Shown one piece after another: positions 1,860 to 56,263 of a stretch of DNA of 64,000 nt; within the stretch, counting starts at the first letter, position 1; the number at the start of each line of letters is the position of its first letter. This stretch comes from Vicinamibacteria bacterium. Its GTDB lineage: Bacteria > Acidobacteriota > Vicinamibacteria > Marinacidobacterales > Marinacidobacteraceae. Position numbers and translations under genes: made by a program. Where the stretch lies: contig CAXXLQ010000004.1 in NCBI GenBank assembly GCA_963668695.2, positions 2,784,001-2,848,000 on the forward strand, read 5' to 3'. The notes below the pieces were generated by a model. That model made no database searches. It was not told the origin of the DNA and worked only from the letters and a program-made list of their open reading frames with translations.

Positions 1860-4460
1860 ATGTCCATGTACCTGCGTCTCAGCTTCGCCCTCCTCCTGCT
1901 GGCGGCCACTCCGCTTTTCGCTCAGCCCCAGCGCTGGCCGCCGCCACCAATCATCCAGGGGGTTGCGGAGGCGTATCCGCCGGCGCGCCACGGTGGGAAC
2001 TACATGCACAACTACTACTTCCCGCCGGCGCCGAGCAGCACTCCCTGGGCTCCCGCCTGGTCACCGGACGGGAAGTCGATCGCGGTGGCGATGTCCGGCT
2101 CCATCTGGCGCGTGGATCCTGAAACGGGGATTGCCGACGAACTGACGTCCGGCCCCGGATACCACTCGCTCCCCACCTGGTCTCCCGACGGGAGACACAT
2201 CGTCTTCACGGTGGACCGAAACGGCGAGACCATCGGCCTCGCGATCACGGACCTGGCCACCGGGGAAATCCGTTCTCTCACGAACGATGAGTTCCTTTAC
2301 ACCGATCCGGCGTTCTCGCCGGACGGGACGCGGCTCGCCTACGTGTCCACGAAGCCATCGGGCTACTTCAACGTCTATGTCCGTGAGTTCGCGAACGGCG
2401 AACTCGGTTCCGAAGAGATGGCGCTTACCAGGGACGAGAACTACGGCAAGGAGCGGCTCTACTTCGGCTCCTGGGACATGCACATCACACCGGCCTGGAT
2501 GCCCGACTCCCGGGAACTGCTGATGGTCTCCAATCACGAGGTGCCGCTCGGCTCGGGGAACGTCATCCGGACTCCGATGGCGGTAGACGGCTTCGAAGAG
2601 GGCGTGACGGTGCTCGCGGAACAGTCGCTCTACCGGAGTCGTCCGGATGTCTCCATCGACGGGAAGCGGTTCATCTATTCCTCGACCGCCGGTGCGGCGG
2701 ATCAGTTCTCGAACCTCTACGTCCAGCCGACCGACGGCGGGTCGCCCTACAAGCTGACCTTCTTCGAGCACGACGCCTTCCATCCCCGCTGGTCGCCGAA
2801 CGGCGAGTGGATCGCCTATGTGGACAACTCCGGGGGACTCCCGCAGCTCGCGCTGCTCGAGACCTACGGCGGCAAGCGGCGCGTCGTCGAGATCACCCGG
2901 CGCAACTGGAGCCGACCGATGGGGGTGCTCTCGGTGCGTACGGTGGATGACGCGACCGGCGAGGAGGTCGCTGCCCGGATTCACCTGCGGGCCTCCGACA
3001 CCCGGTTCTACGCCCCGCCGGACGCCTACGCCCGGATCGGGGGCGCCGATGAGCACTCCTTCCACCAGCCAGGCAGTTTCCGGATGGAAGTCCCGGTGGG
3101 ACCCCTCGAGATCGAGGCGGTGCGCGGCTTCGAGCACGAACCCCTGAGCGCCAGTGTGGAGATCGCGGCCGGCGACGTCACCGAGCTGACGCTGCGGCTC
3201 GTTCGGATCACCGACATGGCGGCCAAGGGATGGTGGAGCGGCTCCACTCACGTCCACATGAACTACGCCGGCAACCTGCACAACACGCTGGAGAACCTGA
3301 TGTTCATGTCGGACGCCGAGGACCAGGACGTAGTGCTGGAACAGGTCGCCAACAAGGACAACCGCATTCTGGACTACCAGCACTTCATCCCCGGCGGCGA
3401 GGAGCATCCGCTTTCCACCGAAGATCGGGTGCTGGTGGTGGGACAGGAATACCGGCCACCCTTCTACGGCCACGTCTTTCTCTTCGGGATGAAGGAGCAC
3501 CTCCTCTCGCCCTACACCACCGGCTACGAGGGAACCGGAATCGAGAGCCTCTATCCGTCGAACACCGACATGTTCCGGAAGGCGAGAGCCCAGGGCGCGA
3601 CCGTCGGCTATGTGCACGCGTTCTTCGGGGAGAACGATCCGCTCGTCGGCCCGGGCGGAAGTCCCGGGAACCTGGGTGGCGCCAAGGGATACATGGTGGA
3701 TGCCGCGCTCGGCACCACGGATGCGGTCGAGTGGTCCTCCGCGTCACGGGCCGGGTTCTTTCCCTGGTACGCCACGCTGAACAACGGCCTCCGGGTCACT
3801 GCGGTGGGCGGCGAGGACTCGATCAGCAACATGCAGCGGTCCAAGCTGGTCGGCTCGGTCCGCACCTACGTGCACACCGGAGAACGGGGACTGGATCTCG
3901 ACGCTTTCCTCGAAGGGATCCGGGAGGGCAGGGCCTTCGTGAGTTGCGGGCCCGTGCTCGACTTCCGCGTAGAGGGCCGGATCCCGGGGGACGACGTGCA
4001 GCTTCCCGAATCGGGAGGCGAAGTGGAGTGGAGCGCGTGGGTGCGCTCCTCGACGCCGCTCCAGCGGGCCTGGGTGGTCTCGGGGGGCGTGGACGTGGCC
4101 GAGGTGCCGCTGTCGGAGGATCGGCGCTCCGCCCGGGCCACCGGCCAGGTCACCATGGACCGGAGCGGCTGGCTGATCCTCCGGGCGGAAGGTTCCCCGG
4201 AGGAGGCGCGCCCGCTCGACTGCAGCTACGCGCAGGCGTTCACCAATCCGGTCTGGGTCAGGGCAGGGGAGCAGCCGGTCCGGAGCGCCGCCGCCGCCGA
4301 ATACTCCATCCGCTGGATCGACCGGCTCCGCCAGTTGGCTGAAGAATGGGAGTACTGGCGCTCGGACGCCGAGAAGGCGCATGTCTATGCCCAGTTCGAC
4401 GAGGCCCGCGCGATCTACCAGGGGTTCCTGGCCGAGGCCCGCGCGCTGGGCCGGGAATGA
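1860..4460 (+). CDS. Secreted TolB-like (PD40) beta-propeller plus CehA/McbA-type PHP metallohydrolase
   Basis: Signal peptide and repeated PAWSPDG/PTWSPDG/PRWSPNG motifs. C-terminal GWWSGSTHVHM, GQEYR..GH, GYVH and VGGEDS metal-site motifs. Confidence 0.85.
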   Translation: MSMYLRLSFALLLLAATPLFAQPQRWPPPPIIQGVAEAYPPARHGGNYMHNYYFPPAPSSTPWAPAWSPDGKSIAVAMSGSIWRVDPETGIADELTSGPGYHSLPTWSPDGRHIVFTVDRNGETIGLAITDLATGEIRSLTNDEFLYTDPAFSPDGTRLAYVSTKPSGYFNVYVREFANGELGSEEMALTRDENYGKERLYFGSWDMHITPAWMPDSRELLMVSNHEVPLGSGNVIRTPMAVDGFEEGVTVLAEQSLYRSRPDVSIDGKRFIYSSTAGAADQFSNLYVQPTDGGSPYKLTFFEHDAFHPRWSPNGEWIAYVDNSGGLPQLALLETYGGKRRVVEITRRNWSRPMGVLSVRTVDDATGEEVAARIHLRASDTRFYAPPDAYARIGGADEHSFHQPGSFRMEVPVGPLEIEAVRGFEHEPLSASVEIAAGDVTELTLRLVRITDMAAKGWWSGSTHVHMNYAGNLHNTLENLMFMSDAEDQDVVLEQVANKDNRILDYQHFIPGGEEHPLSTEDRVLVVGQEYRPPFYGHVFLFGMKEHLLSPYTTGYEGTGIESLYPSNTDMFRKARAQGATVGYVHAFFGENDPLVGPGGSPGNLGGAKGYMVDAALGTTDAVEWSSASRAGFFPWYATLNNGLRVTAVGGEDSISNMQRSKLVGSVRTYVHTGERGLDLDAFLEGIREGRAFVSCGPVLDFRVEGRIPGDDVQLPESGGEVEWSAWVRSSTPLQRAWVVSGGVDVAEVPLSEDRRSARATGQVTMDRSGWLILRAEGSPEEARPLDCSYAQAFTNPVWVRAGEQPVRSAAAAEYSIRWIDRLRQLAEEWEYWRSDAEKAHVYAQFDEARAIYQGFLAEARALGRE

Positions 4461-4530
4461 CGGAGCGGACTGCCGGGAATCGTCCCGGCGACGCTTCGGG
4501 GTTTTCGTTATCGCCTGATACGCTCGCGAT

Positions 4531-4872
4531 ATGAGTCTGGTGGGGCGCGCCTTCGGCACGAAAGCGCCGTTTGTCGCGGCCAGCCAGATCGACGAAGTTC
4601 TGAGCGGCGGGCGCGTCCTGCTGCTCGACGTACGGACGGCTCTGGAACTCGCGGAGTCGGGGACCATTCCCGGCGCGGTCCATATTCACCTCGGAGAACT
4701 CGCGGAGCGGGTGGAAGAACTGCCCCGCGACCGTCCGGTGCTCACTACTTGAATGGTGGGACCACGCGCCGCGCGGGCCGCGGCCATTTTGGAAAACGCA
4801 GGATTCGAGGTCGTTGGTTTCAGCGGCCTCAAGCAATACACGGGCGTCCGGGAATACCGGCCGCTCGATTGA
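4531..4872 (+). CDS. Rhodanese-like selenoprotein (Sec at TGA 4750-4752)
   Basis: LLLDVRT..E...GTIPGAVHIHLGEL..RVEELPRDRPVLTT-TGA-MVGPRAARAAAILENAGFEVVGFSGLKQY. The rhodanese domain continues in frame past the TGA, which sits at the catalytic CxxGxR position. Stop is TGA 4870-4872. Confidence 0.85.
4753..4787 (+). promoter_or_regulatory. Putative bacterial SECIS hairpin
   Basis: Stem GCCGCG(4768-73)/CGCGGC(4779-84) with loop CGGGC starting 22 nt after the UGA. Possible basal ATGG/CCAT pairing. Confidence 0.6.
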
Positions 4873-4878
4873 TTCCTG

Positions 4879-5051
4879 AACAGCCTGTGAACAAAGTCAC
4901 GCGGCATTCGACCGGCGATGCATCCCGGCTGAACCGCGTTGCTCGTCGTTGCACTTCGGTCGAAATACAGCCAGTACTCCTCCCTCGTGCGCCTTGTCAG
5001 CCGGGCGCCTCACCGGTCTCGGTGCTCACGTCACTTTGTCCACAGGCTGTT
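4879..5051 (+). mobile_element. MITE-like element, family A
   Basis: Terminal inverted repeats AACAGCCTGTGAACAAAGT / ACTTTGTCCACAGGCTGTT. Core GGCGATGCATCCCGGCTGAAC...CGAAATACA...GCGCCTTGTCAGCCGGGCGCCTC is shared with the copies at 6847, 55775 and 58450. No ORF. Confidence 0.8.
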
Positions 5052-5065
5052 AAAGGAGGTCCATT

Positions 5066-5506
5066 GTGAAACGGACTCTTTCCCTTGCCGGTGTCGCCTT
5101 GGCGGCAGCGGTTCTCGGATGGGGCTGCGGAGGCGGTGAGCCTCCGGCCGAGGAAAGTGCGGCGCCCGAGCCCGCGGCGCCGGAACCGGCCCCGGCCCCG
5201 CGGGTCGAAGCTGAGGAAATCGACGCGGCTCTTGCGGCCGGCGCCGTCCTCCTCGACGTTCGCACCGATGAGGAGCTCGCCGAGCACGGCACGATCGACG
5301 GCTTCATCCACATTCCGATTGACGAACTGGAGGCGAGGATCGGTGAACTCCCGACCGGAGTTCCCGTCCTCACTGCTTGACAGGGTGGCGGAAGAGCCGC
5401 GCGTGCCGCGGAGCTGCTACAAGCAAACGGATACGAAGTCGTCGGTTTCTGTGGCCTGAGAGGCTACGAGGGAGAGCGGGTCTTTCCCGGAGCCTCGGGT
5501 AACTGA
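5066..5506 (+). CDS. Lipoprotein rhodanese-like selenoprotein (Sec at TGA 5378-5380)
   Basis: SD AAGGAGGT then GTG. Lipobox-like VLGWGC and a Pro/Ala/Glu linker precede LLDVRTDEE...GTIDGFIHIPIDEL..RIGELPTGVPVLTA-TGA-QGGGRAARAAELLQANGYEVVGFCGLRGY. Stop is TGA 5504-5506. Confidence 0.85.
5381..5416 (+). promoter_or_regulatory. Putative bacterial SECIS hairpin
   Basis: Stem CCGCG(5397-5401)/CGCGG(5407-11) with loop CGTGC starting 22 nt after the UGA, the same spacing as in the paralogue. Possible basal CAG/CTG pairing. Confidence 0.6.
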
Positions 5507-5521
5507 TCCAGGCGAAACGGG

Positions 5522-6823
5522 TCAGATCTGAACGGTCCGGAATCCCGCCATCACGTCGCGGCGGTCCGGGCTGAAGAAGTTGCGGTAGCGGCCGGTCAGC
5601 AGCCGGCCGCGAGTTGCCCAGGCGCCGCCGCGCAGTACCTTCGTCTCGTGGAATCCGGCCTCGGAATAGTCCCGGTAGGCGTCGGGACGAAAACCGGGAT
5701 AGGGCCGCAAGGTGTCCTCCGTCCACTCCCAGACGTTGCCGAGCATCTGCCGGCAGCCGAAGGCGCTGTCCCCGGCGGGCAGTGCTCCGACGTCGGAACA
5801 TCCGAGCGACCAGCCGTTGAGGTTCGCGCGCCGCGGGTCTGGAGGCGCCTCGCCCCAGGGGTACGTCCTTTTGGTTGCCGCCAGGCTGTTTCCGTCGGGT
5901 TCGCCGAGGGCGGCGGTCTCCCACTCCACCTCGGTGGGGAGCCGCCGTCCGGCCCAGGCGCAATAGGCACTGGCCTCGAACCAATTGACGTGGATGACAG
6001 GTTCGTTCAGGGGCAGCGGCTCGATGAGGTCGAACCGCCGCACCTGGAATCCTTGCCGACCGTCGGGAATCCAGTAAACGGGATGGGTTGCCGCGGCCTC
6101 TACCCTCCAATCCCAGCCCGGTTCGCTCCAGAACTCCCGCCGCTGGTAGCCGCCGGCATCCACGAATTCGGCGAACTCCGCTTGGCTGACCGGCGCCTTC
6201 GCGATCGAAAACGGCTGAACCCGGACCGGGTGCGCCCATTTTTCGTTGTCGAAGAAGAACGGCGCCTCCCTCTCCGCGCCGAGCCGGAACGTGCCGCCGG
6301 GGACGCTGGCGTCTCCCGGGTGGCTGCCGCCGCCCGCCGCTTCCGGCGTCCGACCCGGGCCGATTCGCGGCGCGGGGTAGCCGAGGGTCTGCCGGGAATA
6401 GATGTACGCCTCGGTGTGCATGTCCTCATGGAAGGTGGCGAACTGGTACATGAAACTGTTCCTGGTGCTCGCCAACCCTGGATCCAGTCTTTCCAGGCAG
6501 CGGTCCTTGACCGTTTCGGCGTAGCGGATCGTTTCGGCCATGCCCGGGAGGGGCAGATCCCAGCGAACCTCCTGGTGGACGGCCGCCGAGTCGTAGAGGT
6601 CGTCTCCCTCGGGCAAGATCGGCGCGTATCCGTAGAGGTCCCGCAGGATGAATCTCTCGTGGAACCAGGCAACGTGCCCGATCTCCCACCGCAGCGGGTT
6701 GACGATGGTCAACCGTGTTCCCATCAGTTGGTCCTCGTCGAGGCCGGCGGTCAGCGCCAGGCTTCGCCGGTGGGCGTCGTCCATGATGGCTGCGAGGTGA
6801 TCGGCCGGGACGCGCTTTGTCAT
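5522..6823 (-). CDS. senA: Selenoneine synthase SenA (EgtB-like DinB + FGE-sulfatase domains)
   Basis: NPLRWEIGHVAWFHE, iron-binding HEDMHTE, FFFDNEKWAH, RRLPTEVEWE and QMLGNVWEWT; adjacent to senB. Confidence 0.85.
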   Translation of the reverse strand: MTKRVPADHLAAIMDDAHRRSLALTAGLDEDQLMGTRLTIVNPLRWEIGHVAWFHERFILRDLYGYAPILPEGDDLYDSAAVHQEVRWDLPLPGMAETIRYAETVKDRCLERLDPGLASTRNSFMYQFATFHEDMHTEAYIYSRQTLGYPAPRIGPGRTPEAAGGGSHPGDASVPGGTFRLGAEREAPFFFDNEKWAHPVRVQPFSIAKAPVSQAEFAEFVDAGGYQRREFWSEPGWDWRVEAAATHPVYWIPDGRQGFQVRRFDLIEPLPLNEPVIHVNWFEASAYCAWAGRRLPTEVEWETAALGEPDGNSLAATKRTYPWGEAPPDPRRANLNGWSLGCSDVGALPAGDSAFGCRQMLGNVWEWTEDTLRPYPGFRPDAYRDYSEAGFHETKVLRGGAWATRGRLLTGRYRNFFSPDRRDVMAGFRTVQI

Positions 6824-6846
6824 GGTTTCCGTCCGGGCGCGGAGTG

Positions 6847-7029
6847 AGCAGCCGGTGGTGAAACCCAGGCGGCGTTCGAGCGGCGATGCATCCCGGCTGA
6901 ACCGCGCCGCTATGCGGCGCTCGGCGTTGCGTTTGGGTCGAAATACACTTGGTATTCCTCCCTCACGCGCCTTGTCAGCCGGGCGCCTCGCCGCTCTCGG
7001 CGCTCACCCGGGTTCCAGCACAGGCTGCT
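6847..7029 (+). mobile_element. MITE-like element, family A
   Basis: TIRs AGCAGCCGGTGGTGAAACCC / GGGTTCCAGCACAGGCTGCT and the same internal core as 4879-5051. Confidence 0.8.
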
Positions 7030-7041
7030 AAAGGGTCGCCC

Positions 7042-7995
7042 GTGCGGATCATTCTAGTAACCCCGGCGGGGGCGGGTTCGCGCAGCGGGAACCGCGTCAC
7101 GGCGGTCCGCTGGGCACGGATCCTTCGGTCGCTCGGCCACGGCGTCACAGTCGAGACCGCGTGGGACGGCGCTCCCGCGGACCTGCTGATCGCCCTCCAT
7201 GCCTGGCGGAGCGCCGCATCGGTCACCCGCTACCGATCGCGTTTTCCGGCCCGTCCGCTGATCGTGGCGCTCACCGGAACGGACGTGTACCGCTTTTTGC
7301 ACTCCGATGAAGCGACGACCCGGCGGTCGCTCCAAGACGCCGATGTCCTGATCGCGCTCCACGATCTGGTCCAGGACGCACTGCCGACGGAGTTCCTTTC
7401 GAAGGTGCGGGTCGTTCACCAATCGGTAGCGAACCCGGGTCTGCCGCGCCGTCCTTCCCGGCGTTTTTTCGATGTTTGCGTGGTCGGGCACCTGCGCTTC
7501 GAAAAGGACCCGATGAGAGCGGCCTACGCGGCGCGGGCCATGCCCGAGGCCTCCCGGTTGCGCGTTCTCCACGCCGGCGGAGCCCGCGACCCGAGCTGGG
7601 CGGAACCGGCGCGCCGGGAGATGGCCTGCAACCGGCGTTACCGGTGGCTTGGTGAGGTGCCCGGCTGGCGCGTGGGCCGGCTCTACGCCAGGACGCACGC
7701 CATGGTGATCTCATCGGTGATGGAAGGAGGGCCCAACGTGGTCTCGGAAGCGGTCGTGGCAGGGCTCCCGGTGATCGCTTCCCGGATTCCGGGGAACGTC
7801 GGCCTCCTCGGCCCGGACTACCCGGGCTACTACGCGCCGCAGGACACCGACGCGCTTCGCGAGGCGCTCTGGCGCGCCGAGAGCGCCCCTGGATTCCTCG
7901 ACGAGCTGGCCCGGCACGGCGCGCAGCGAGCGCCGCTCTTCGCGCCCGAGCGCGAACGGGAGACCTGGCGCCAACTGCTCAGCGCCGTGGGGTGA
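7042..7995 (+). CDS. senB: Selenosugar synthase SenB (GT-B glycosyltransferase)
   Basis: From GTG 7042: RIILVTPA..SRSGNRVTAVRWARIL, LIALHAWRS, ALTGTDVY, VGHLRFEKDP and SSVMEGGPNVVSEA, which match SenB. The ORF-track start at 6949 lies inside the MITE. Confidence 0.88.
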   Translation: MRIILVTPAGAGSRSGNRVTAVRWARILRSLGHGVTVETAWDGAPADLLIALHAWRSAASVTRYRSRFPARPLIVALTGTDVYRFLHSDEATTRRSLQDADVLIALHDLVQDALPTEFLSKVRVVHQSVANPGLPRRPSRRFFDVCVVGHLRFEKDPMRAAYAARAMPEASRLRVLHAGGARDPSWAEPARREMACNRRYRWLGEVPGWRVGRLYARTHAMVISSVMEGGPNVVSEAVVAGLPVIASRIPGNVGLLGPDYPGYYAPQDTDALREALWRAESAPGFLDELARHGAQRAPLFAPERERETWRQLLSAVG

Positions 7996-12305: not shown

Positions 12306-15300
12306 TTGAGAACAATCAGGACATTTCCCAAATGTCATGGGGTTGTGAAGACGTACCCAAAAGAATCCGGCGGATCAGAGCGTCGGGGAAGCGGATCCGG
12401 GGAAACTGAGCGGACCCCGCGGGCGCGCGGGGGTGCCGGAGGGACGCGTCGCGGGACGATCCTCCTGTTAGCGGGTCTGGCCGTGCTCCGGTCGGTCGCG
12501 GCCCCGGCGCAGACCGAAGTGGACCTTCTGACGACCACGCTGACACCGGCCGCAATCGGGACCTCGGGTGTGGGATACGCCCCACCAGGAACCGGGTCCC
12601 TCGGCGCCGACTCCTTCTACTACCGGGGATTCACGTACCAGATCAGAGGTCTCAGGGCTCGTTCGGTGGCCGGATTGGGCGCCAACCGGAGCCATTTCTG
12701 TCTGGCCTTCCAGTCGCCGTTCGTGAACGGCCTCCGGCACCGAGGCAGTCTTGCCAATGTCACGCTTTGGGTCGGAGACGATGCTTACGCATTGCGAGAT
12801 GCGCTCCAGGAAGGCGGCGCAAATCTTTGCTGGTACCCACGCGTGGCCTTCGGCCAGGTATTGGAGGCGGGGGTCGCGACGACGCTGCGGATCACGACGA
12901 CGGAGATGCGCCCGGTGCTCTCCATCGAAACCCAGCCGCGGAACGGCGACACCTATTTCAAAGGGGAAACGCTCCGATTCCGGCTCTCGACCGGGGATCG
13001 GATGAGGGTCAGGGGACAGCCGACGCTTGCGTTGAACATCGGAGGCGAGATCGTCGCCGCTACCGCCATGAGGGCGTGGGTGCGGCCTTATGTGGATTTC
13101 ACATACACCGTGGCCGATGGCGATGTGGACACCAACGGTGTGAGCGTGGCGGCGAACTTGTCGGAGACCGGCGGGACGCTTCAGCTCAATGGGGGCAGCC
13201 TCCTGACCGCGAACGATTCAATTGCCTTTCTCGAGTTCTCGGGTCTGCCCGACCAGGCGGGGCACAAGGTGAATGGTGACCTCGCGGACACGACGCCGCC
13301 GGCGCTTGCGAGCGCCACCGTTCAGTACCGCGAAGTATGGCTCGACTACGACGAGCCGCTCGACCGGAGCAGGAGGCCCGGCACCGGCCAATTCACGGTG
13401 ACGGTGGATGGGGCAGCGGCCAACATCGAGTCGGTCGGCTTTGGCTCTGACCGGCGGCTCGTGCTCACTCTCCAGACGGCGGTCGACACCGGCGACACGG
13501 TGCTTTTGTCCTCGACGGCGACGATCCGGGATCTGAGCAGGAACACCGAGGCGTCCCCGCCGGCCGACTACGCCCTCGTCAATAGGACTCTCGCCATGGC
13601 GCCCACCCTTGTCCTGTCCGTCAACAAGGAAGAAGTCGTTGAGGGGGAAGAATTTGAGCTGACAGCCACGCTATCCCAAAGCGTCGGGTACGCAGTCTCG
13701 GTGCCGCTGTCAGTGTCGCCACTTTTTGCGCTGAGGGACTTGCCATCCAGAATCGGGATTCCGGCCGGGGAGACGGAGGTGACGATACCGGTGACTACGA
13801 ATCACTTGGCTACTCGCGCCTACGACATCGAAGTCACCATAGGGGCGGGCGAAACCGATTTCTATTCCGGTCGTCCGGAAGTCACCTTCACCGCTCTGGA
13901 CCGGGATGCATCCTACCGATACAAGGTCCTACCCTTCTCCAATCTGGGAGAGGTCGTCGAGGGTGCCTCGAACACGAGCATCGGCGTCAACTTCAAGGTC
14001 TCCGCCGTCGGCCCCGCCGCCGCCGCCCCTGGATCCGTTGCCTTTCAGGTCCACACCCAGGGCCAGACGGCCAGGTACCCGGGCGACTATGCCGCGGTCG
14101 GACGATTAGTTGAGATCCTGCCTGAAGGTTTCACTTTCGTCGAGGCGGCCCAGCGGTGGGAGGCTTTGATCTCGGTTGAGGTCCAGATTCTCGCGGACGA
14201 CGAACCAGAAGGCGACGAAACCTTCGATCTCACGTTGAGCTCGGCGCCCGGGCGGAGGCAGAATGTGGACTTTTGCGGCTCGGGCCAAGCGCAGATTTGC
14301 CGGATCTCGATCCTGATCACCGATGACGACGTCGGAGTCCGCGTCGGTCTTGAAGCACGGGACGGATCCCAGCGGATTTCGACAGCGGAGAGCAGCGGCG
14401 AGGTCGAGGTGGACTTCGTGGGTTTTATTACCCCGGGTCTTGAGAGGGGTCCAGCGATGGAGTTCCGGATTGCGGCGGAGGACGGTTCTGCCAACCTGCC
14501 GGCCGACTACGGATTCTCGGGGGCGACCGGCGCCTCCACCACCGTACGGATTGGCGCTGCGGACTGGGTAACGGGGGAGGAGAACGGCGAGGTTCTCCTC
14601 ACCGTCAGAAAGCCGATCCGGTTCGACCTCACCGACGACCAGCTCGATGAGAATCAGGAGGAGTTCGGGGTGCGCCTGGGGGAACCCGTCGATCCCATCA
14701 AATACCTTGAGTCGATCGCCGGCAAGCAGTTCGTCACGGTAGCCATCGAGGACGACGACGAGCGCGGGGTGATCGTCTCGCCGACGCTTCTCGAACTCCT
14801 TCCCGGAGAGACGGGGAGCTACCAGGTCAACCTGGGCTCCCAGCCGACGGGGACCGTCACCGTCACCCTGGCCGGTCCCGATCATGGAGATCTGGAGGCC
14901 TCTCCGCCAACCCTCACCTTCACTGCCGATAGCTGGCGTACGGCCCAAGCGGTGAGCGTCGAGGCGACCGACGGCTTCCTCATCCCCGACGAGGCCACGA
15001 TCGACCACGAGGTGACTGGCGCCGACTACGCGGGCTTCGCGGCCGATTCGGTGTCCGTCCGGGCCACGAACGCGGACGATACCGACCCCCTGCCGCAGCT
15101 CGGAATCGCCGACGCTTCCGCTGGCGAAGATGACGGCACGATGTCGTTCGAAGTGACCCTGAGTGCCGCGAGCAGCGACGAGGTGACGGTCCGGTATGCG
15201 ACGGAGGAAGGAACCGCCGAAGCGGACGCGGATTTCACCGCGGCGTCCGGAACCGTGACGTTTGCCGCTGGCGTCCGAACCGCCACCATCGAGGTGACGC

Positions 15301-18300
15301 TGCTGGATGACAGTTCCGACGAAATGACGGAGCAATTCCAGGTGACGCTCAGCAATGCTGTCAACGCCGAGATCGACGACGACACCGCTGATGCCGAGAT
15401 CGAGGACGACGACGAGCCGCCCACCGCCTCCGTCAGGGGCGGAGCCGCTTACGAGACCAGCGGAGAACTTGGGTTCACCGTCAGTCTTTCGGCGCCGAGC
15501 AGTTTCGATGTCACCATGCGTTACGAGACGGTTGAGCTACCCGTGGACGATGGTGGGGCCACCGAGGGCACGGACTACGAGGCGACGGCCGGCGCCCTCA
15601 CCATCGCCCCCGGTGTGAGCGCCGTCAGAGTAAACGTCCCGATCCTGAGTGACAGCCTGCACGAACCGGACGAAACCGTGGGTCTGGCGTTGACCAGACC
15701 GACCAACGCCGTATTCGGCACGAACCAGGCAAACGCCATCGGAACGATCCAGGATGACGACGACCCGCCGAGGCTCACCGTGACCGGCGGGACGGCCACC
15801 GAGGCCGACGGAAGCATTCCCTTTACGTTCGAGCTTTCCGAAGTCAGCGGTCTCGCGGTGGTCGTGCCGTACGAAACGCAGGACGACACGGCCACCGCTG
15901 GGGCCGACTACCAGAGTTCTTCGGGTTCTCTGACGGTAGCCGCGGGCCAGACGCAGGAGACGCTCCGAGTGCCCCTCTACCGGGATGTGCTCACCGAACC
16001 GGACGAAACCTTCGGCTTGCTCGTGGACGAAGACACCTTGGTGGGGGCCACCTATCGGGAGGCTGTCTCCGATCCGGTTGCGACTATCCGGGACTCCCCC
16101 GGGCCCGGGCTCACCGTCGGTGACGCCATCGCGACCGAAGTATCCGGAACCATCCGCTTTCCGGTTGGCGTCCTCGGCACAAACGCGTCCGCAGTGACCG
16201 TTTCCTGGACGACCCGGGACGGGACCGCGGTCGCCGGATCGGACTACACGGCGGCGAGCGGAACCCTGACCATCCCCGCCGAAACGCGCGAAGCGGACAT
16301 TACGGTGACGCTGCTCACGGACCAGACAGCGGAGCGCGACGAGACGTTTTCGGTCGTTCTGAGCAATGCGTCCGGCGCTGCCCTCATTGATGCAACGGCC
16401 GTCGGCACCATAACCGAAGGCGCGCTTCCGGTGATGAACGTTGCAGCCGCTCAAGCGTCCGAGGGTGCCCCCTCGCTCACTTTCACGGTTTCCCTGAGCG
16501 AGGCAGGCACGAACGAAATTCGGGCCAACTATCGGACTTCGGAGGTCACGGCGACGGAGGACGAGGACTATACGGAGACCTCCGGGGTCCTGACCTTTGC
16601 ACCGAGCGACCTCAGCAAAGAGGTCATTGTGCCCATCCTCGCGGACTCCTTCGACGAAGCGGACGAGACTCTGCTGCTGACCCTGAGCGGGATCCGGAAC
16701 GCGACGCTGGGCGCGAGCCCGGCAACCGGGACGATCCAGGACGACGATGACGCGCCCACTGTCAGCATCTCGGACGCCGAAGCCACCGAGGGCGGAATTC
16801 TCACCTTCGAGGTGGGCCTGTCGGCGCCCAGCCGGAGGCAAGTCACGGTGGCGTACGAAACCATCGATGGCACCGCCAGCGAGCCGGACGACTACACCGC
16901 GGCGGAAGGAACGCTGACCTTCGCTCCCGGCGACACTGCGCGGCAGATTCGCGTGTCGCTCCAACAGGACTCAACGTACGAGCCGTCGGAAACCCTCTCG
17001 GTCGGTCTCAAGAGTCCGGTCAACGCGCCGGTACCCGGGGAAGAAGACGGGAGCGCCAAGGGGACCATCCTGGACGACGACGTACGCGCGGTGGTGGTCA
17101 ATCCCTCCGAACTCACCGTACCGGAGGGAGGCGAGCGCAGCTACACGGTCGTTTTGTCCACCCAACCCGCGGGGTCCGTGACGGTGGCGATCGCAGTGGA
17201 AGGCAACACCGATGTTTCCACCCACTCCTCCACCCTGACGTTCACGACACAGAACTGGAACACCGCGCAGGAGGTGATGGTTTCCGCAGCCGAAGATGGG
17301 GACCGCGAGTCGGAGACGGCGACGATCAGGCACATGGTCAGCGGCGCCGACTACGCAGCCGTCCAGGCGGATTCGGTAGCCGTCGAAGTCACGGACGGGG
17401 ACACCGCCTCTACCGTGATCGCGCTCAGCGTGGAACCGAAAACGGTCACCGAGAGCGGTGGCGCCCAGGCAGTGGTGGTGAAGGCTGCGCTGAACGGTGC
17501 GACCCTTCTCGCCTCGACGGTGGTGACGGTGACCGTTCAGGGGGATACCGCGACCGTTACCGACGACTTCGCCCCGGTGAGCGCCTTCAACCTGACGATT
17601 CCGGCGGAAGCGGCGGAAGCGACCCGGACCTTCACGCTCACCCCGGTGGACGATGACATTGACGAGGGAGAGAGCGAGACGGTATCGCTTACCGGCGCTA
17701 CTGCCACCCCAGGACTGACCGTGAGGGCGACGAAAGTGACGATCACCGACGACGACGAGCGCGGGGTGACGGTGCGGCCCAGGAGCCTCACGGTGGCCGA
17801 GAACTCGACCGGCCAGTACACCGTCGTGCTGGAGAGCGAGCCGACGGGCAACGTGACGGTCACCCTCGCGAAGTCCGGGAGCGACGCCGTCACCGTTCCC
17901 GCCACGCCGCTGACCTTCACGAGCTTGAATTGGGCGACGGCCCAGACGGTGACAGTGACGGCGGCGAGCGATGTCGACGCCGACAACGAGGAGGCAACGG
18001 TTGCGCACGCCGTGACCGGGGCGGACTACGCCGGGGAGCCGGCGGATTCGGTGCAGGTCACGGTTGCGGACGAGGGACGGCTCGCGACGACGATCGCGCT
18101 GTCGGCGGCTCCGAGCGTGTTGGACGAGGACGGCGGAGCGACGCCGGTGGTGATTACGGCGGCGCTTGACGGCGCGACGCGGACCGCGCCGATCGTGGTG
18201 ACGGTCGAGGTGGGCGCGGCCGCTGACAGAGCCACGGAGGGGACGGACTACGGGCCGGTGAGCGACTTCACGATGACGATCGCCAGCGGCGCGGTGTCCG

Positions 18301-21300
18301 GGGCAGGGACTTTCACCCTGACGCCAATGAACGATCTGGTAGCGGAAGGCGACGAAGTGATATCGGTCATCGGGACAACCACCGCGGTGGACCTGACGGT
18401 GACGGGGACGGCGGTAACGCTGGCGGATGACGACGAGTCATCGGGGCGGATCACCCTCTCGGCAAATCCGGATTCGGTATCCGAAGGCGGCTCCGCTACC
18501 GCGATCACCGTGATCGCGGCGCTCGACGGCGCGACACGGACGGAAGCTACGGCGGTGACCGTGTCGGTGGGCGTCGGGACGGACAGCGCGACCGAAGGTA
18601 TCGACTACCAGGTGGTTTCGGATTTCACCGTGACGATTCCCGCGACGATGAGCAGCGGTACGGCGACGTTCACGCTCACGCCCAATCAAGACCTGGTGGG
18701 AGAGGGCGACGAACGGATTTCGGTGGTTGGCGCTGCCGTCAGCTTCGCGGTAACCGGAGCGAGAGTGACGCTAACCGATGACGAGACGCTTGCTACCGGG
18801 GTCACGCTGTCAGCCTCGCACACGTCGGTGGGTGAGGATGACCAGCCGACGGTGGTGTCGGTGACGGCGACCCTGAACGACGCGACCCGGTCGACGGCGA
18901 CTGCGGTGACCGTTTCGGTAGGCGACCGGGGAGATGGCGCGACGGAGGGTTCGGACTACGCCCTGGTAGCCGACTTCACGGTAACGATCCCCCCGGCTAC
19001 GGCGAGCGGGACGGGGACGTTCACACTGGAACCCACTCAGGACACGCTGGGTGAGGGTGACGAGTCGATCTCGGTGGGGGGCAGGGCGACGGACCTGACC
19101 GTAACCGGGACGGCGATGATCCTGACGGACGCCGAGACGGTGTCGACGAGGGTAACGCTCTCGGTGGAGCCGGCGAGCGTGGGAGAGGAGGATTCGGCGA
19201 CGGACGTGGTGGTGACGGCAGAGCTGGACGAGGATTCACGGGGTTCGGCGACGGCAGTGACCGTCGCGGTGGGGAACGCGGGAGACGGTGCCACTGAGGG
19301 GACGGACTACCAGGTGGTGGGAGACCTGACGGTCATGATCCCAGCGGGGATGACCAGCGGGACGAGAACCTTCACGCTGACGCCCAGGGACGACGACCTG
19401 AATGAGGGGGACGAGGATATTTCCCTCGTCGGGACGACTACCGCGGCGGGCCTGAGCGTTACCGGCGCTCGGGTGACGATCACCGACGACGAATCGGCCC
19501 CGATGACAATCGCCCTGAGCGTGCAACCGCAGTCGGTCCCCGAGAACGGGGGCGCGCAGACCGTCACCGTGGTCGCGACATTATTGGACGGGGGCGCATT
19601 CGTGGCCGCGACCGTGGTGACGGTCGAGGTTGGCGACACCGGCGACGGCGCCACCGAAGGAACGGACTACGGCGCGGTGGGCAGCTTCTCATTGACCATC
19701 GCCGGGGGCGCGCGCCGCGGGACGGGAACATTCCGGCTAACACCTGTCGACGATCTGATCTACGAAGGGACGGAGAGCGTCTCGGTGAAGGGAACGACCA
19801 CGGTTCCCGGCATCACGGTCAATGGGACGGAACTGATGCTGGCCGACAGCGAGATCGAGAGCATGAAAGTCCTGCTCTCGGCCGATCCCGTGCGGGTGGG
19901 TGAGGAGGATTCGGCGACCGCGGTGATGGTGACAGCCGCGCTCGACGGGGGAGTGCTTTCGTCGCCGACCGCCGTCACGGTCCAGGTCGGGGCGGGGGGA
20001 GGTAGCGCGACGGAGGGGACGGACTACGCCACGGTTTCGGACTTCACGGTGACGATCGGGGCGGGTGCGACGAGCGGGACGGGGACGTTCACGCTGACGC
20101 CGACGCAGGACTCCCTGGGCGAGGGTGACGAAACGATATCGGTAGGCGGGAGTACCACGGTGGCGGAGCTGACCGTCAGGGGCACGGAACTTACCCTGGT
20201 CGACGACGAGACCTCCTCGACGGTGATCACCCTGTCGGCGAATCCCGCCGCTGTCGGAGAAGGGGATTCGGCCACCGCCGTCGCGGTGACGGCGGTGCTG
20301 AATGCCACCCCGCGCCAGCTGGCCACGGCGGTGACGGTCGCGGTGGGGGATACGGGGGACAGTGCGACGGAGGGGACGGACTACGCCACGGTGTCGGACT
20401 TCACGGTGACGATCGGGGCGGGCGCGACGAGCGGGACGGGGACGTTCACCTTGACGCCGACGCAGGACGCCCTGGGCGAGGGTGACGAGGCGATCTCCGT
20501 GGAGGGCTCGGCGACGGGACTGACGGTGACGGGGACATCGTTGACGCTGGAAGACGACGAGACGGTTTCCACGGAGGTGACGCTGTCGGTGAACCCGGCG
20601 AGCGTGGGAGAGGCGGACGGGGCGACGGCGGTGGTGGTGACGGCGGCGCTGGACGGGGGCGCTCTGGGCTCGGCGACGGAGGTGACGGTCGCGGTGGGGG
20701 CCGGAACGGACAGTGCGACGGAGGGGACGGACTACCAGGCGGTGTCGGACTTCACGGTGACGATCGGGGCGAACGCGCCGAGCGGGACCGGGACGTTCAC
20801 GCTGACGCCGACGCAGGACGCTTTGGGCGAGGGTGACGAGAGCATCACGGTGGGAGGGACGGCGACGGACCTGACGGTGACCGGTACGGCGTTGACGCTG
20901 ACGGACGACGAGACGGTTTCGACGGGGTTGACGCTGTCGGTGAACCCGGCGAGCGTGGGAGAAGCGGACGGTGCGACGGCGGTGGTGGTGACGGCGGCGC
21001 TGGACGGCGGCGCTCTGGGCTCGGCGACGGCGGTGACGGTCGCGGTCGCGGTGGGGGCCGGAACGGACAGTGCGACGGAGGGGACGGACTACCAGGCGGT
21101 GTCGGACTTCACGGTGACGATCGGGGCGGGTGCGACGAGCGGGACGGGGACGTTCACGCTGACGCCGACGCAGGACTCCCTGGGCGAGGGTGACGAGAGC
21201 ATCACGGTGGGAGGAACGGCGACGGACCTGACGGTGATGGGAACGTCGTTGACGCTGACGGACGACGAGACGGCTTCCACGGCGGTGACGCTGTCGGTGA

Positions 21301-24300
21301 ACCCGGCGAGCGTGGGAGAGGCGGACGGTGCGACGGCGGTGGTGGTGACGGCGGCGCTGAATGCCACCCCGCGCCAGCTGGCCACGGCGGTGACGGTCGC
21401 GGTGGGTGCCGCGGGGGACAGTGCGACGGAGGGGACGGACTACGCCACGGTGTCGGACTTCACGGTGACGATCGGGGCGGGCGCGACGAGCGGGACGGGG
21501 ACGTTCACGCTGACGCCGACGCAGGACTCCCTGGGCGAGGGTGACGAGAGCATCACGGTGGGAGGAACGGCGACGGGGTTGACGGTGACGGGGTTGACGG
21601 TGACGGGGACATCGTTGACGCTGACGGACGACGAGACGGCTTCCACGGCGGTGACGCTGTCGGTGAACCCGGCGAGCGTGGGAGAGGCGGACGGGGCGAC
21701 GGCGGTGGTGGTGACGGCGGCGCTGAATGCCACCCCGCGCCAGCTGGCCACGGCGGTGACGGTCGCGGTGGGGGCCGAAACGGACAGTGCGACGGAGGGG
21801 ACGGACTACCAGGCGGTGTCGGACTTCACGGTGACGATCGGGGCGGGTGCGACGAGCGGGACGGGGACGTTCACGCTGACGCCGACGCAGGACTCCCTGG
21901 GCGAGGGTGACGAGAGCATCACGGTGGGAGGAACGGCGACGGACCTGACGGTGATGGGAACGTCGTTGACGCTGACGGACGACGAGACGGCTTCCACGGC
22001 GGTGACGCTGTCGGTGAACCCGGCGAGCGTGGGAGAGGCGGACGGTGCGACGGCGGTGGTGGTGACGGCGGCGCTGAATGCCACCCCGCGCCAGCTGGCC
22101 ACGGCGGTGACGGTCGCGGTGGGGGCCGGAGGGGACGGCGCGACGGAGGGGACGGACTACCAGGCGGTGTCGGACTTCACGGTGACGATCGGGGCGGGCG
22201 CGACGAGCGGGACGGGGACGTTCACGCTGACGCCGACGCAGGACTCCCTGGGCGAGGGTGACGAGAGCATCACGGTGGGAGGAACGGCGACGGACCTGAC
22301 GGTGAGGGGAACGTCGTTGACGCTGACGGACGACGAGACGGCTTCCACGGCGGTGACGCTGTCGGTGAACCCGGCGAGCGTGGGAGAGGCGGACGGGCGA
22401 CGGCGGTGGTGGTGACGGCGGCGCTGAATGCCACCCCGCGCCAGCTGGCCACGGCGGTGACGGTCGCGGTGGGGGACGGAGGGGACAGTGCGACGGAGGG
22501 GACGGACTACGCCACGGTGTCGGACTTCACGGTGACGATCGGGGCGGGTGCGACGAGCGGGACGGGGACGTTCACGCTGACGCCGACGCAGGACTCCCTG
22601 GGCGAGGGTGACGAGAGCATCACGGTGGGAGGAACGGCGACGGGGTTGACCTGACGGTGACGGGGACGTCGTTGACGCTGACGGACGACGAGACGGCTTC
22701 CACGGCGGTGACGCTGTCGGTGAACCCGGCGAGCGTGGGAGAGGCGGACGGGGCGACGGCGGTGGTGGTGACGGCGGCGCTGAATGCCACCCCGCGCCAG
22801 CTGGCCACGGCGGTGACGGTCGCGGTGGGGGCCGAAACGGACAGTGCGACGGAGGGGACGGACTACCAGGCGGTGTCGGACTTCACGGTGACGATCGGGG
22901 CGGGTGCGACGAGCGGGACGGGGACGTTCACGCTGACGCCGACGCAGGACTCCCTGGGCGAGGGTGACGAGAGCATCACGGTGGGAGGAACGGCGACGGA
23001 CCTGACGGTGATGGGAACGTCGTTGACGCTGACGGACGACGAGACGGCTTCCACGGCGGTGACGCTGTCGGTGAACCCGGCGAGCGTGGGAGAGGCGGAC
23101 GGTGCGACGGCGGTGGTGGTGACGGCGGCGCTGAATGCCACCCCGCGCCAGCTGGCCACGGCGGTGACGGTCGCGGTGGGGGCCGGAGGGGACGGCGCGA
23201 CGGAGGGGACGGACTACCAGGCGGTGTCGGACTTCACGGTGACGATCGGGGCGGGCGCGACGAGCGGGACGGGGACGTTCACGCTGACGCCGACGCAGGA
23301 CTCCCTGGGCGAGGGTGACGAGAGCATCACGGTGGGAGGAACGGCGACGGACCTGACGGTGATGGGAACGTCGTTGACGCTGACGGACGACGAGACGGCT
23401 TCCACGGCGGTGACGCTGTCGGTGAACCCGGCGAGCGTGGGAGAGGCGGACGGTGCGACGGCGGTGGTGGTGACGGCGGCGCTGAATGCCACCCCGCGCC
23501 AGCTGGCCACGGCGGTGACGGTCGCGGTGGGGGCCGAAACGGACAGTGCGACGGAGGGGACGGACTACGCCACGGTGTCGGACTTCACGGTGACGATTGG
23601 GGCGGGTGCGACGAGCGGGACGGGGACGTTCACGCTGACGCCGACGCAGGACTCCCTGGGCGAGGGTGACGAGAGCATCACGGTGGGAGGAACGGCGACG
23701 GGGTTGACGGTGACGGGGTTGACGGTGACGGGGACATCGTTGACGCTGACGGACGACGAGACGGCTTCCACGGCGGTGACGCTGTCGGTGAACCCGGCGA
23801 GCGTGGGAGAGGCGGACGGGGCGACGGCGGTGGTGGTGACGGCGGCGCTGAATGCCACCCCGCGCCAGCTGGCCACGGCGGTGACGGTCGCGGTGGGGGA
23901 CGCGGGGGACGGCGCGATGGAGGGGACGGACTACGCCACGGTGTCGGACTTCACGGTGACGATCGGGGCGGGTGCGACGAGCGGGACGGGGACGTTCACG
24001 CTGACGCCGACGCAGGACTCCCTGGGCGAGGGTGACGAAACGATATCGGTAGGCGGGAGTACCACGGTGGCGGAGCTGACCGTCAGGGGCACGGAACTTA
24101 CCCTGGTCGACGACGAGACCTCCTCGACGGTGATCACCCTGTCGGCGAATCCCGCCGCTGTCGGAGAAGGGGATTCGGCCACCGCCGTCGCGGTGACGGC
24201 GGTGCTGAATGCCACCCCGCGCCAGCTGGCCACGGCGGTGACGGTCGCGGTGGGGGCCGAAACGGACAGTGCGACGGAGGGGACGGACTACGCCACGGTG

Positions 24301-55846: not shown

Positions 55847-56263
55847 CAAGGCGCGTGAGGGAGGAGCCCCCACCGGGAGAACTGGCCCGGGCGTATTCCG
55901 ACCGAAACCCAACGATGAGCGGCGCGAAGCGACGCGGTGAACAGCCGGTGGTGGAACCCACGTGAGCGCCGAGGCCGGCGAGGCACCCGGCTGACAAGGC
56001 GCGTGAGAAAGGAATACCGAGTGTATTTCGACCGAAACGCAACGATGAGCGGCGCGAAGCGACGCGGTTCAGCCGGGATGGATCGCCGGCCGAACGCCGC
56101 GTGGGTTTCATCACCGGTTGTTTGGCCGGGATGGATCGCCGGCCGAGCCCCCACCGGGAGAACTGGGCCGCGTGGGTTTCATCACCGGTTGTTTGGCCGG
56201 GATGGATCGCCGGCCGAGCCCCCACCGGGAGAACTGGGCCGCGTGACTTTGTTCACCGGCTGC
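55775..56263 (-). mobile_element. Nested family-A MITE cluster: outer element, inner element 55940-56122, 71-bp tandem duplication
   Basis: Outer TIRs GTAGCTGGTGGACAAAGT / ACTTTGTTCACCGGCTGC and inner TIRs AACAGCCGGTGGTGGAACCC / GGGTTTCATCACCGGTTGTT. Cores are the reverse complement of 4879-5051. Confidence 0.8.

Follow-up and report, generated by a model that had tools for sequence, protein, structure and literature searches.

What do two adjacent reading frames encode when both of them end at exactly the position where the catalytic cysteine of a rhodanese domain is expected? This question is raised by a locus within a 64,000-nucleotide (nt) stretch of DNA from a Vicinamibacteria bacterium of the phylum Acidobacteriota (GenBank assembly GCA_963668695.2, contig CAXXLQ010000004.1, positions 2,784,001 to 2,848,000 of the forward strand). 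We refer to this whole stretch as the window, and coordinates given without a prefix are positions within it. An initial annotation, made from the sequence alone, had proposed that two tandem genes at 4531-5506 are hidden selenocysteine (Sec, U) rhodaneses that carry an in-frame UGA in place of the catalytic Cys codon and that standard gene callers truncate. On the sequence evidence assembled here, we conclude that both genes are very probably intact selenoprotein genes. The recoding signals, the selenium machinery, the conservation and the selection are observed, and we infer selenium incorporation, cellular location and substrate.

Two reading frames interrupted at the rhodanese catalytic position

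Gene 1 (4531-4872, plus strand) is predicted to encode a cytoplasmic-type, single-domain Sec-rhodanese of 113 amino acids (aa) with U74 and the loop U-M-V-G-P-R. The open reading frame (ORF) at 4531-4752 halts at the TGA at 4750-4752, and the frame stays open from there to a second TGA at 4870-4872. Gene 2 (5066-5506, plus strand) has a GTG start and a GGAGG motif at 5055-5059; its putative product is a lipoprotein-type, single-domain Sec-rhodanese precursor of 146 aa with U105 and the loop U-Q-G-G-G-R. Its ORF (5066-5380) halts at the TGA at 5378-5380, and the frame is open onward to the TGA at 5504-5506. When the internal TGA codons are read as U, the two proteins contain the segments VLTT-U-MVGPRAARAA and VLTA-U-QGGGRAARAA, respectively, and the read-through products are 57% identical over 77 aa. 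TGA is also the terminal stop of gene 1, gene 2 and the upstream gene at 1860-4460. The genetic code is therefore not reassigned in this genome, and any recoding has to depend on context.

A sequencing error as the source of the two TGA codons is excluded. DNA contigs from two other studies carry no alternative letter at either codon, one of them (X3) spanning the whole stretch in one piece and the other (X6) covering it in two (4500-4920 and 5025-5520); thus TGC or TGT, which would have undone the proposal of the initial annotation, is found neither in independent assemblies nor in contigs from public runs. Two contigs from RNA libraries (X9 and X10, 4991-5520) cover all of gene 2 with its TGA present and leave gene 1 almost wholly uncovered. 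Since DNA can be present in RNA libraries, this cover speaks only weakly for transcription.

The interrupted codon falls in the catalytic column of the domain. The Pfam Rhodanese model PF00581 is matched across the TGA in both genes, with 47.1 bits for gene 1 and 42.8 bits for gene 2 against a gathering cut-off of 22.2, so that the domain does continue in frame as had been claimed. In an alignment with 18 database homologues, the U column holds Cys in 17, all of them full-length proteins with loops of the C-x-x-G-x-R type; the remaining homologue (P0067) is out of register past the site. The loops U-M-V-G-P-R and U-Q-G-G-G-R align with C-R-S-G-x-R of the Cys homologues and with C-Q-L-G-M-R of 3icr. 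When a family profile is used, the best matches among solved structures are the rhodanese domains of 3icr and 3nta, in which the catalytic Cys lies under U. In both genes the nucleophile position opens a six-residue loop of the C-X4-R type; we take the U-X4-R spacing to be the length typical of sulfurtransferases, as opposed to the C-X5-R loop of phosphatase domains of the Cdc25 and arsenate reductase type. Besides the pair, the genome encodes a single further rhodanese, a Cys protein with two domains.

In order to determine whether the TGA is conserved, 40 relatives were searched in six frames. Both genes, each with exactly one TGA, are present in 23 of the 24 other genomes of the family, the exception being G007, which is 89% complete. 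In 30 fetched loci, representing 24 family genomes with two genes each and six order-level homologues (U-NGGGR, 46-50% identical), the TGA stands in the same column in 54 of 54 copies; second copies in three order-level genomes are listed outside this count. The codon is thus retained in otherwise diverged paralogues. Similarly, in 34 loci of named GTDB representative genomes (metagenome-assembled genomes (MAGs) labelled Acidobacteriota, Vicinamibacteria, 'Candidatus Marinacidobacterium', 'Candidatus Spongiisocius' or Thermoanaerobaculia), all 59 copies carry TGA at the site and none carries Cys. When 400 more genomes, sampled evenly from the phylum, were searched, 36 one-TGA hits were obtained in 34 genomes, counted by the presence of one TGA and not by its position in the catalytic column. 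The best 35 of these hits (down to 72.6 bits) outrank the best stop-free hit (67.2 bits). One unpublished genome (G089) is among the 34, and another (G033) enters solely into the denominators of the surveys of relatives, SenA and SelB.

A single close Cys form was seen, P0071, a protein of 148 aa that is 51% identical to the gene 1 product. Its metagenome relatives carry TGA in 10 of 10 loci, P0071 itself not being among them. In a phylogenetic tree the Sec forms make up one clade (support 99/95), and P0071, the only Cys form, lies inside it; Sec therefore looks ancestral in that clade. The site thus combines a UGA kept in frame among orthologues with a Cys in the same column of homologues.

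Coding constraint persists beyond the UGA. We estimated the ratio of nonsynonymous to synonymous divergence (dN/dS) by the Nei-Gojobori method from 24 orthologues per gene, for the 42 codons before the UGA and for codons +12 to +34 after it. The ratio is 0.107 before and 0.192 after the UGA in gene 1, and 0.118 before and 0.106 after it in gene 2. Because the proportion of synonymous differences (pS) in the downstream part is high (0.54 in gene 1 and 0.45 in gene 2), the low downstream ratios reflect real purifying selection in that frame.

Hairpins downstream of the UGA codons and the selenium machinery

In bacteria, insertion of Sec depends on a selenocysteine insertion sequence (SECIS), and a candidate hairpin follows each UGA. 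In gene 1 its core is at 4768-4784 (plus strand), where 4768-4773 pairs with 4779-4784 in six base pairs (bp) around the loop CGGGC (4774-4778); the 5-bp core is 4769-4773/4779-4783 and the sixth pair, 4768/4784, is G-C. The gene 2 hairpin (5397-5411, plus strand) has 5 bp, 5397-5401 with 5407-5411, and the loop CGUGC (5402-5406). In both genes the loop begins at the 22nd nt past the UGA (spacing 21 nt), and the GC stem with a C-G-x-G-C loop that had been noted initially is thereby recovered. More generally, a 16-nt stretch coding for A-A-R-A-A gives a 5-bp GC stem and the 5-nt loop C-G-K-G-C, with a variant loop, G-G-U-G-C, in L081. The hairpin is identical across all three paralogue groups save for the base in the middle of the loop and four variants in the stem, which are synonymous. 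The motif has 32 hits genome-wide, and only at the two rhodanese genes is there a TGA 20 nt upstream.

These hairpins can be compared with the published bacterial SECIS model, for which the Fig. 2 legend of PMC13188914 gives a loop of 3-9 nt, a stem of 4-16 bp, a spacing of 16-37 nt, a minimum free energy (MFE) of at most -7.5 kcal/mol and a G at loop position 1 or 2 with G or U after it. The loop of 5 nt, the stem of 5-6 bp, the G at loop position 2, the spacing of 21 nt and the energies of -7.6 to -11.0 kcal/mol all lie within these constraints. Gene 1 accounts for -11.0 kcal/mol with 6 bp and -7.6 with the 5-bp core; the gene 2 core has -7.8 kcal/mol, and the MFE fold of 48 nt in gene 2 (-17.8) includes this core. 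A possible lower stem in gene 2 (5385-5391/5414-5420) is paired in 84.9% of cells, no better than controls. The pairs farther out, 17-37 and 18-36, fail to form in most cases and were not retained.

Comparative evidence for the hairpin is considerably stronger. Among 53 distinct sequences from 112 copies, all 265 of 265 cells of the core are paired, with compensatory changes at two of the five core pairs: pair 21-33 is CG in 48 sequences, UG in 3 and UA in 2, and pair 24-30 is GC in 52 and AU in 1, all changes being synonymous. The observed values of core pairing and covariation were reached by 0 of 500 shuffles. Additionally, each of the gene 2 codons +4 to +11 is represented by a single codon in 24 genomes, a run that occurred in 9 of 100000 column shuffles, and pS over codons +1 to +11 is 0.049 vs 0.39-0.45 in the flanks. 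The support for the hairpin is comparative and not thermodynamic, and the expectation that it would fit a bacterial SECIS is borne out in its geometry as well as in its conservation with covariation.

The genome (4.1 Mb, 91.7% complete) also encodes the machinery that such a signal would serve, which the initial annotation had named as a check. Homologues of selA (499 bits), selB (306 bits) and selD (252.7 bits) and a tRNA-Sec (selC; 69.7 bits, anticodon TCA) are all present above cut-offs. The only selD above its cut-off is the C-terminal part of a fusion with a pyridine-nucleotide-disulfide oxidoreductase (C4:727000-735000, L055 2726-6625, minus strand). This fusion protein scores 375 bits with TIGR03169, above the cut-off, 248.5 bits with TIGR00476, and 420 bits with the fusion model TIGR04369, below the cut-off of 700. 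SelB exceeds its cut-off in 38 of 41 genomes, among them every one of the 30 with high-scoring TGA homologues.

Three further candidate selenoprotein genes were identified, each with one in-frame TGA at a known Sec position. They putatively encode an AhpD/CMD-like protein (C-H-Y-U, CxxU; C4:1305119-1305358, plus strand), a peroxiredoxin with the motif G-W-U-P-F-C (C4:3082899-3083288, minus strand) and a peroxiredoxin with the motif T-G-G-U-T-L (C4:3587365-3587811, plus strand). The AhpD-like gene and the first peroxiredoxin gene have hairpins whose loop starts with GG 17-21 nt past the UGA, and the second peroxiredoxin gene has a hairpin without the loop G. The hairpins of these candidate genes differ from the rhodanese motif. 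No match to PF00384 (formate dehydrogenase-type or molybdopterin oxidoreductase) was found in the 91.7%-complete genome.

Several observations weigh against Sec insertion at these codons. The sets of fetched and named loci overlap, many of their members being probable duplicates, and many of the genomes are close kin, so that the copies are not independent; the 400-genome hits, as stated, were scored by the presence of a TGA. The hairpin is short, and the energy of its 5-bp core (-7.6 and -7.8) is barely at the limit of the model. Three of the five core pairs are invariant and therefore carry no information on covariation. The Cys form P0071 likewise retains the peptide RAARAA, which the hairpin encodes, and part of the conservation must thus act on the protein. 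Folds of single 66-nt sequences are no better than those of shuffled ones (z 0.91 and 0.05), and the unconstrained MFE structure of gene 1 (-17.2) adopts another pairing. Rfam gave no meaningful match in 4400-5700 at E-values up to 10 and none at the gathering score anywhere in the window.

Two other explanations of the TGA codons have to be considered in this light. If they were true stops, the genes would be broken or split, and only N-terminal fragments of 73 aa and 104 aa would be made; it can be said for this that no public gene call extends past the TGA and that TGA is a normal stop in this genome. However, half of the fold and the catalytic residue would be missing from such fragments, no copy examined departs from the TGA in that column, the frame downstream evolves at a dN/dS of 0.11-0.19 with many synonymous changes, and the downstream piece of gene 2 has no start codon or ribosome-binding site of its own in that frame. 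We consider true stops extremely improbable. Alternatively, near-cognate decoding or local suppression could place a residue other than Sec (Trp, Cys, Gly or Arg) at the UGA, a suggestion that gains from the shortness of the hairpin and from the fact that Sec decoding is deduced from sequence. Yet the Sec machinery here is complete and is found together with the TGA forms, the codon lies exactly at the catalytic Cys in the classic Sec/Cys pairing, the hairpin agrees with the SECIS model in its spacing and its loop G, and a rhodanese deprived of a chalcogen nucleophile would be inactive. Decoding as another residue is, in our judgment, very improbable, and Sec insertion is the reading that we adopt for both genes.

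Predicted function, cellular location and genomic neighborhood

The two products differ at their N-termini. Gene 2 begins with a predicted signal peptide (5066-5128, plus strand) with a lipobox-like end, ...LGWG-C21-GGG, read by eye, in which Cys21 is encoded at 5126-5128; an acidic linker rich in Pro, Glu and Ala follows. By eye, all 24 gene 2 orthologues and the six order-level homologues share a basic N-terminus, a hydrophobic run, an invariant Cys and residues rich in Gly and Ala, while no signal peptide was seen by eye at the N-terminus of any gene 1 orthologue in the 24 genomes. The presence of a lipoprotein signal in gene 2 and its absence from gene 1 suggest that the pair probably serves the cytoplasm as well as the outer side of the cell membrane. 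In the tree, gene 2 groups with the order-level lipoprotein forms (support 94/87), and gene 1 therefore looks like a signal-less duplicate that retained the UGA and the hairpin.

The following mechanism can be envisaged. On arrival of the ribosome at the UGA, SelB loaded with Sec-tRNA(Sec) would bind the GC hairpin 16 nt downstream, the loop of which, [C/G]-G-[G/U]-G-C, begins 21 nt past the UGA; selenocysteine would be inserted, and translation would go on to the next TGA. The products would be two single-domain rhodaneses with a U-X4-R active-site loop in place of C-X4-R: a 113-aa protein without a signal peptide from gene 1 and, from gene 2, a lipoprotein consisting of a lipidated Cys21, a flexible acidic linker and the domain. 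A donor may deliver sulfane sulfur (or selenium) to the selenolate, forming an Se-S(H) or Se-Se(H) adduct, which could then be passed to a thiol or a cyanide-type acceptor, much as in the persulfide route of Cys-rhodaneses; Sec might make the transfer step faster and the adduct easier to resolve. The pair itself was probably born by duplication of an ancestral Sec lipoprotein rhodanese, with the UGA and the hairpin kept in both copies. Both proteins would accordingly be carriers or transferases for sulfane sulfur, possibly for selenium, one of them predicted to be cytoplasmic and the other to reside at the envelope. It weighs against this assignment that the substrate, the location and the advantage of Sec are all things that we infer.

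Genes related to selenium lie directly downstream of the pair. They are senA (selenoneine synthase; 5522-6823, minus strand; NF041186, 474.6 bits, cut-off 420) and senB (selenosugar synthase; 6949-7995, plus strand; TIGR04348, 399.8 bits, cut-off 300, with the hidden Markov model match beginning at residue 34 of the ORF), which are divergently oriented. Two more EgtB-like genes, below the SenA cut-off, are found elsewhere in the genome. The neighborhood raises the possibility, compatible with Sec decoding and concerning function only, that the pair handles selenium rather than sulfur. In its favor, senA and senB stand directly beside the pair here and in all 14 of 14 other loci of the same genus, the genome is rich in selenium genes (selABCD, senA/senB and the other candidate selenoproteins), and the reference list of PMC5877670 includes a title on selenium-substituted rhodanese as a possible selenium delivery system. 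On the other hand, the adjacency is absent from 9 of 9 loci of other genera of the family and from 6 of 6 order-level loci, so that linkage with senA/senB/senC is confined to genus g1 (14 of 14, against 0 of 15 elsewhere). The neighbors outside the genus are unrelated and varying genes (LexA, L28, PIN, aminotransferase, M28 peptidase, GNAT) with no conserved operon partner among them. No SenA hit exceeds the cut-off in the nine genomes of those other genera, all nine of which keep the Sec-rhodanese pair, and no senC-type selD was found beside senA/senB or the pair. The link to selenoneine is thus a genus-level neighborhood and not a conserved partnership, and we regard selenium as the main cargo as unlikely. 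In this reading, the lipoprotein would capture selenium outside the cytoplasmic membrane, and its cytoplasmic partner would hand the element to the oxidoreductase-SelD fusion for the synthesis of both Sec and selenoneine.

Transfer of sulfane sulfur, possibly of selenium, remains the function that we favor for the pair. We mention as a speculation, and one with small prospects of being correct, that the two proteins may form a dedicated chalcogen relay across two compartments in marine and sponge-associated Acidobacteriota, recruited beside senA/senB in this genus. If this were true, sulfane sulfur or selenium would be captured at the envelope and handed inside, in this genus feeding selenium to selenoneine synthesis. 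Together with the genus-level selenoneine neighborhood, the cytoplasmic/lipoprotein pairing offers a way to ask whether Sec-rhodaneses carry selenium besides sulfur.

Other features of the locus are as follows. The distance from UGA to UGA is 628 nt here vs 449-468 nt in 14 other genomes of the genus, which is explained by the spacer between the rhodanese genes (4879-5051), an element of about 175 nt with 23-nt terminal inverted repeats (91% complementary). Further copies are found at about 6845-7034, in the senA-senB intergenic region, and at 55940-56122. A blastn search with the element gave 780 high-scoring segment pairs covering about 97 kb of the genome, among them 150 near-full-length copies with a median identity of 78%; it looks like a very abundant repeat similar to miniature inverted-repeat transposable elements. 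Upstream of the pair, the gene at 1860-4460 (plus strand) encodes an 866-aa protein with TolB-like beta-propeller repeats and a CehA/McbA-family metallohydrolase domain, and a terminator-like hairpin follows it at 4482-4502. An open frame of 3369 aa spans 12306-22415 (plus strand) of the window.

Annotation in databases and relation to known rhodaneses

The public gene calls do stop at the TGA, as had been predicted, yielding proteins of 73 aa for gene 1 and 104 aa for gene 2. Among the best 66 database hits to the gene 1 product, 65 are proteins of 70-77 aa whose sequence stops at the TGA, and the public records of gene 1 relatives, from Acidobacteriota MAGs, are named 'rhodanese-like domain-containing protein' or 'hypothetical protein'. 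In about 8% of the sampled Acidobacteriota genomes, the relatives are stored as fragments of 70-104 aa that lack the catalytic residue. As a result of such truncated entries, both the selenoproteomes and the sulfur-transfer capacity of uncultured marine lineages are undercounted. The hairpins, for their part, provide a clean natural case of a SECIS, with a 16-nt core kept through a duplication and across classes with compensatory changes, and could help to train SECIS detectors.

Several characterized rhodaneses resemble the two proteins in part. The best solved matches are the C-terminal rhodanese domains of CoA-disulfide/persulfide reductases (3icr, 3nta, 8a56; E-values 2.5e-17 and 6.9e-16), whose loop C-Q-x-G-x-R resembles U-Q-G-G-G-R of gene 2; those domains use Cys and are fused to a flavoprotein reductase, whereas the proteins described here stand alone. 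GlpE and PspE of E. coli (PDB 1gmx and 2jtq) also consist of a single rhodanese domain, about 100 aa long, and have a loop of the C-X4-R type, but they use Cys instead of Sec and are distant (E-values 2.6e-5 and 3.5e-6 with the family profile, and NCBIfam scores far under cut-offs). PspE is exported to the periplasm, where it is a soluble protein and not a lipoprotein; in being exported it resembles the probable gene 2 product. ExtH of Geobacter sulfurreducens is a rhodanese-family lipoprotein that is discussed with sulfur, selenite and tellurite metabolism in PMC6148476. It is an exported lipoprotein rhodanese, as predicted for the gene 2 product, but differs in being much larger (49 kDa according to PMC5877670) and in lying within a cytochrome/porin cluster.

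For the comparison with known Sec-rhodaneses, COG2897 is the group of the two-domain SseA type. Rhodanese-related sulfurtransferases with Sec were described from the Sargasso Sea in 2005 (PMC1088965), and a Sec family named 'Sulfurtransferase COG0607' in Global Ocean Sampling (GOS) data in 2008 (PMC2398784). A 2026 review of the prokaryotic selenoproteome (PMC13188914) distinguishes five rhodanese forms, with UxxG motifs in 'form 2' and in 'form 4, rhodanese-related sulfurtransferase'. NF041203 (rhodanese_LYCAU, 'rhodanese-related (seleno)protein', form 3, CxU) likewise describes a small, Sec-capable rhodanese-related protein, but the two proteins score 23.4 and 15.7 bits against its cut-off of 115 and have no Cys two residues before U, so that they are not members. 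Also rejected was the TsoB rhodanese/DsbD fusion-like selenoprotein (form 5, NF045694, UxxxxU), which gave no hit at E-values up to 0.01; each of our proteins contains one U. No paper describing the pair was found in searches of the open-access literature for Sec-rhodaneses in Acidobacteria or sponges and for rhodaneses with senA/senB.

The proteins are most similar to forms 2 and 4 and to the GOS COG0607 family, with a PF00581 domain and Sec in place of the catalytic Cys, the motifs here being UMVG and UQGG. They share with these a marine or metagenomic origin, many Cys homologues and a bacterial-type SECIS right past the UGA. The likeness lies in motif and domain, and the source table assigns the Sargasso Sea entry on which form 4 is based to COG2897, in contrast to the single domain here. 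The available parts of PMC13188914 and PMC2398784 make no mention of tandem cytoplasmic and lipoprotein copies, of Acidobacteriota hosts or of a shared invariant hairpin. Thus the proposal that these are real selenoproteins hidden from gene callers is supported, while the novelty that it implied was overstated: Sec-rhodaneses have been a catalogued kind of selenoprotein from 2005-2008 on, and the copies described here are genuine and mis-annotated members of that kind. Relative to the forms already known, their interest lies mainly in the conserved cytoplasmic/lipoprotein pairing, in the unusually clear conservation of the SECIS and in a possible role in selenium handling.

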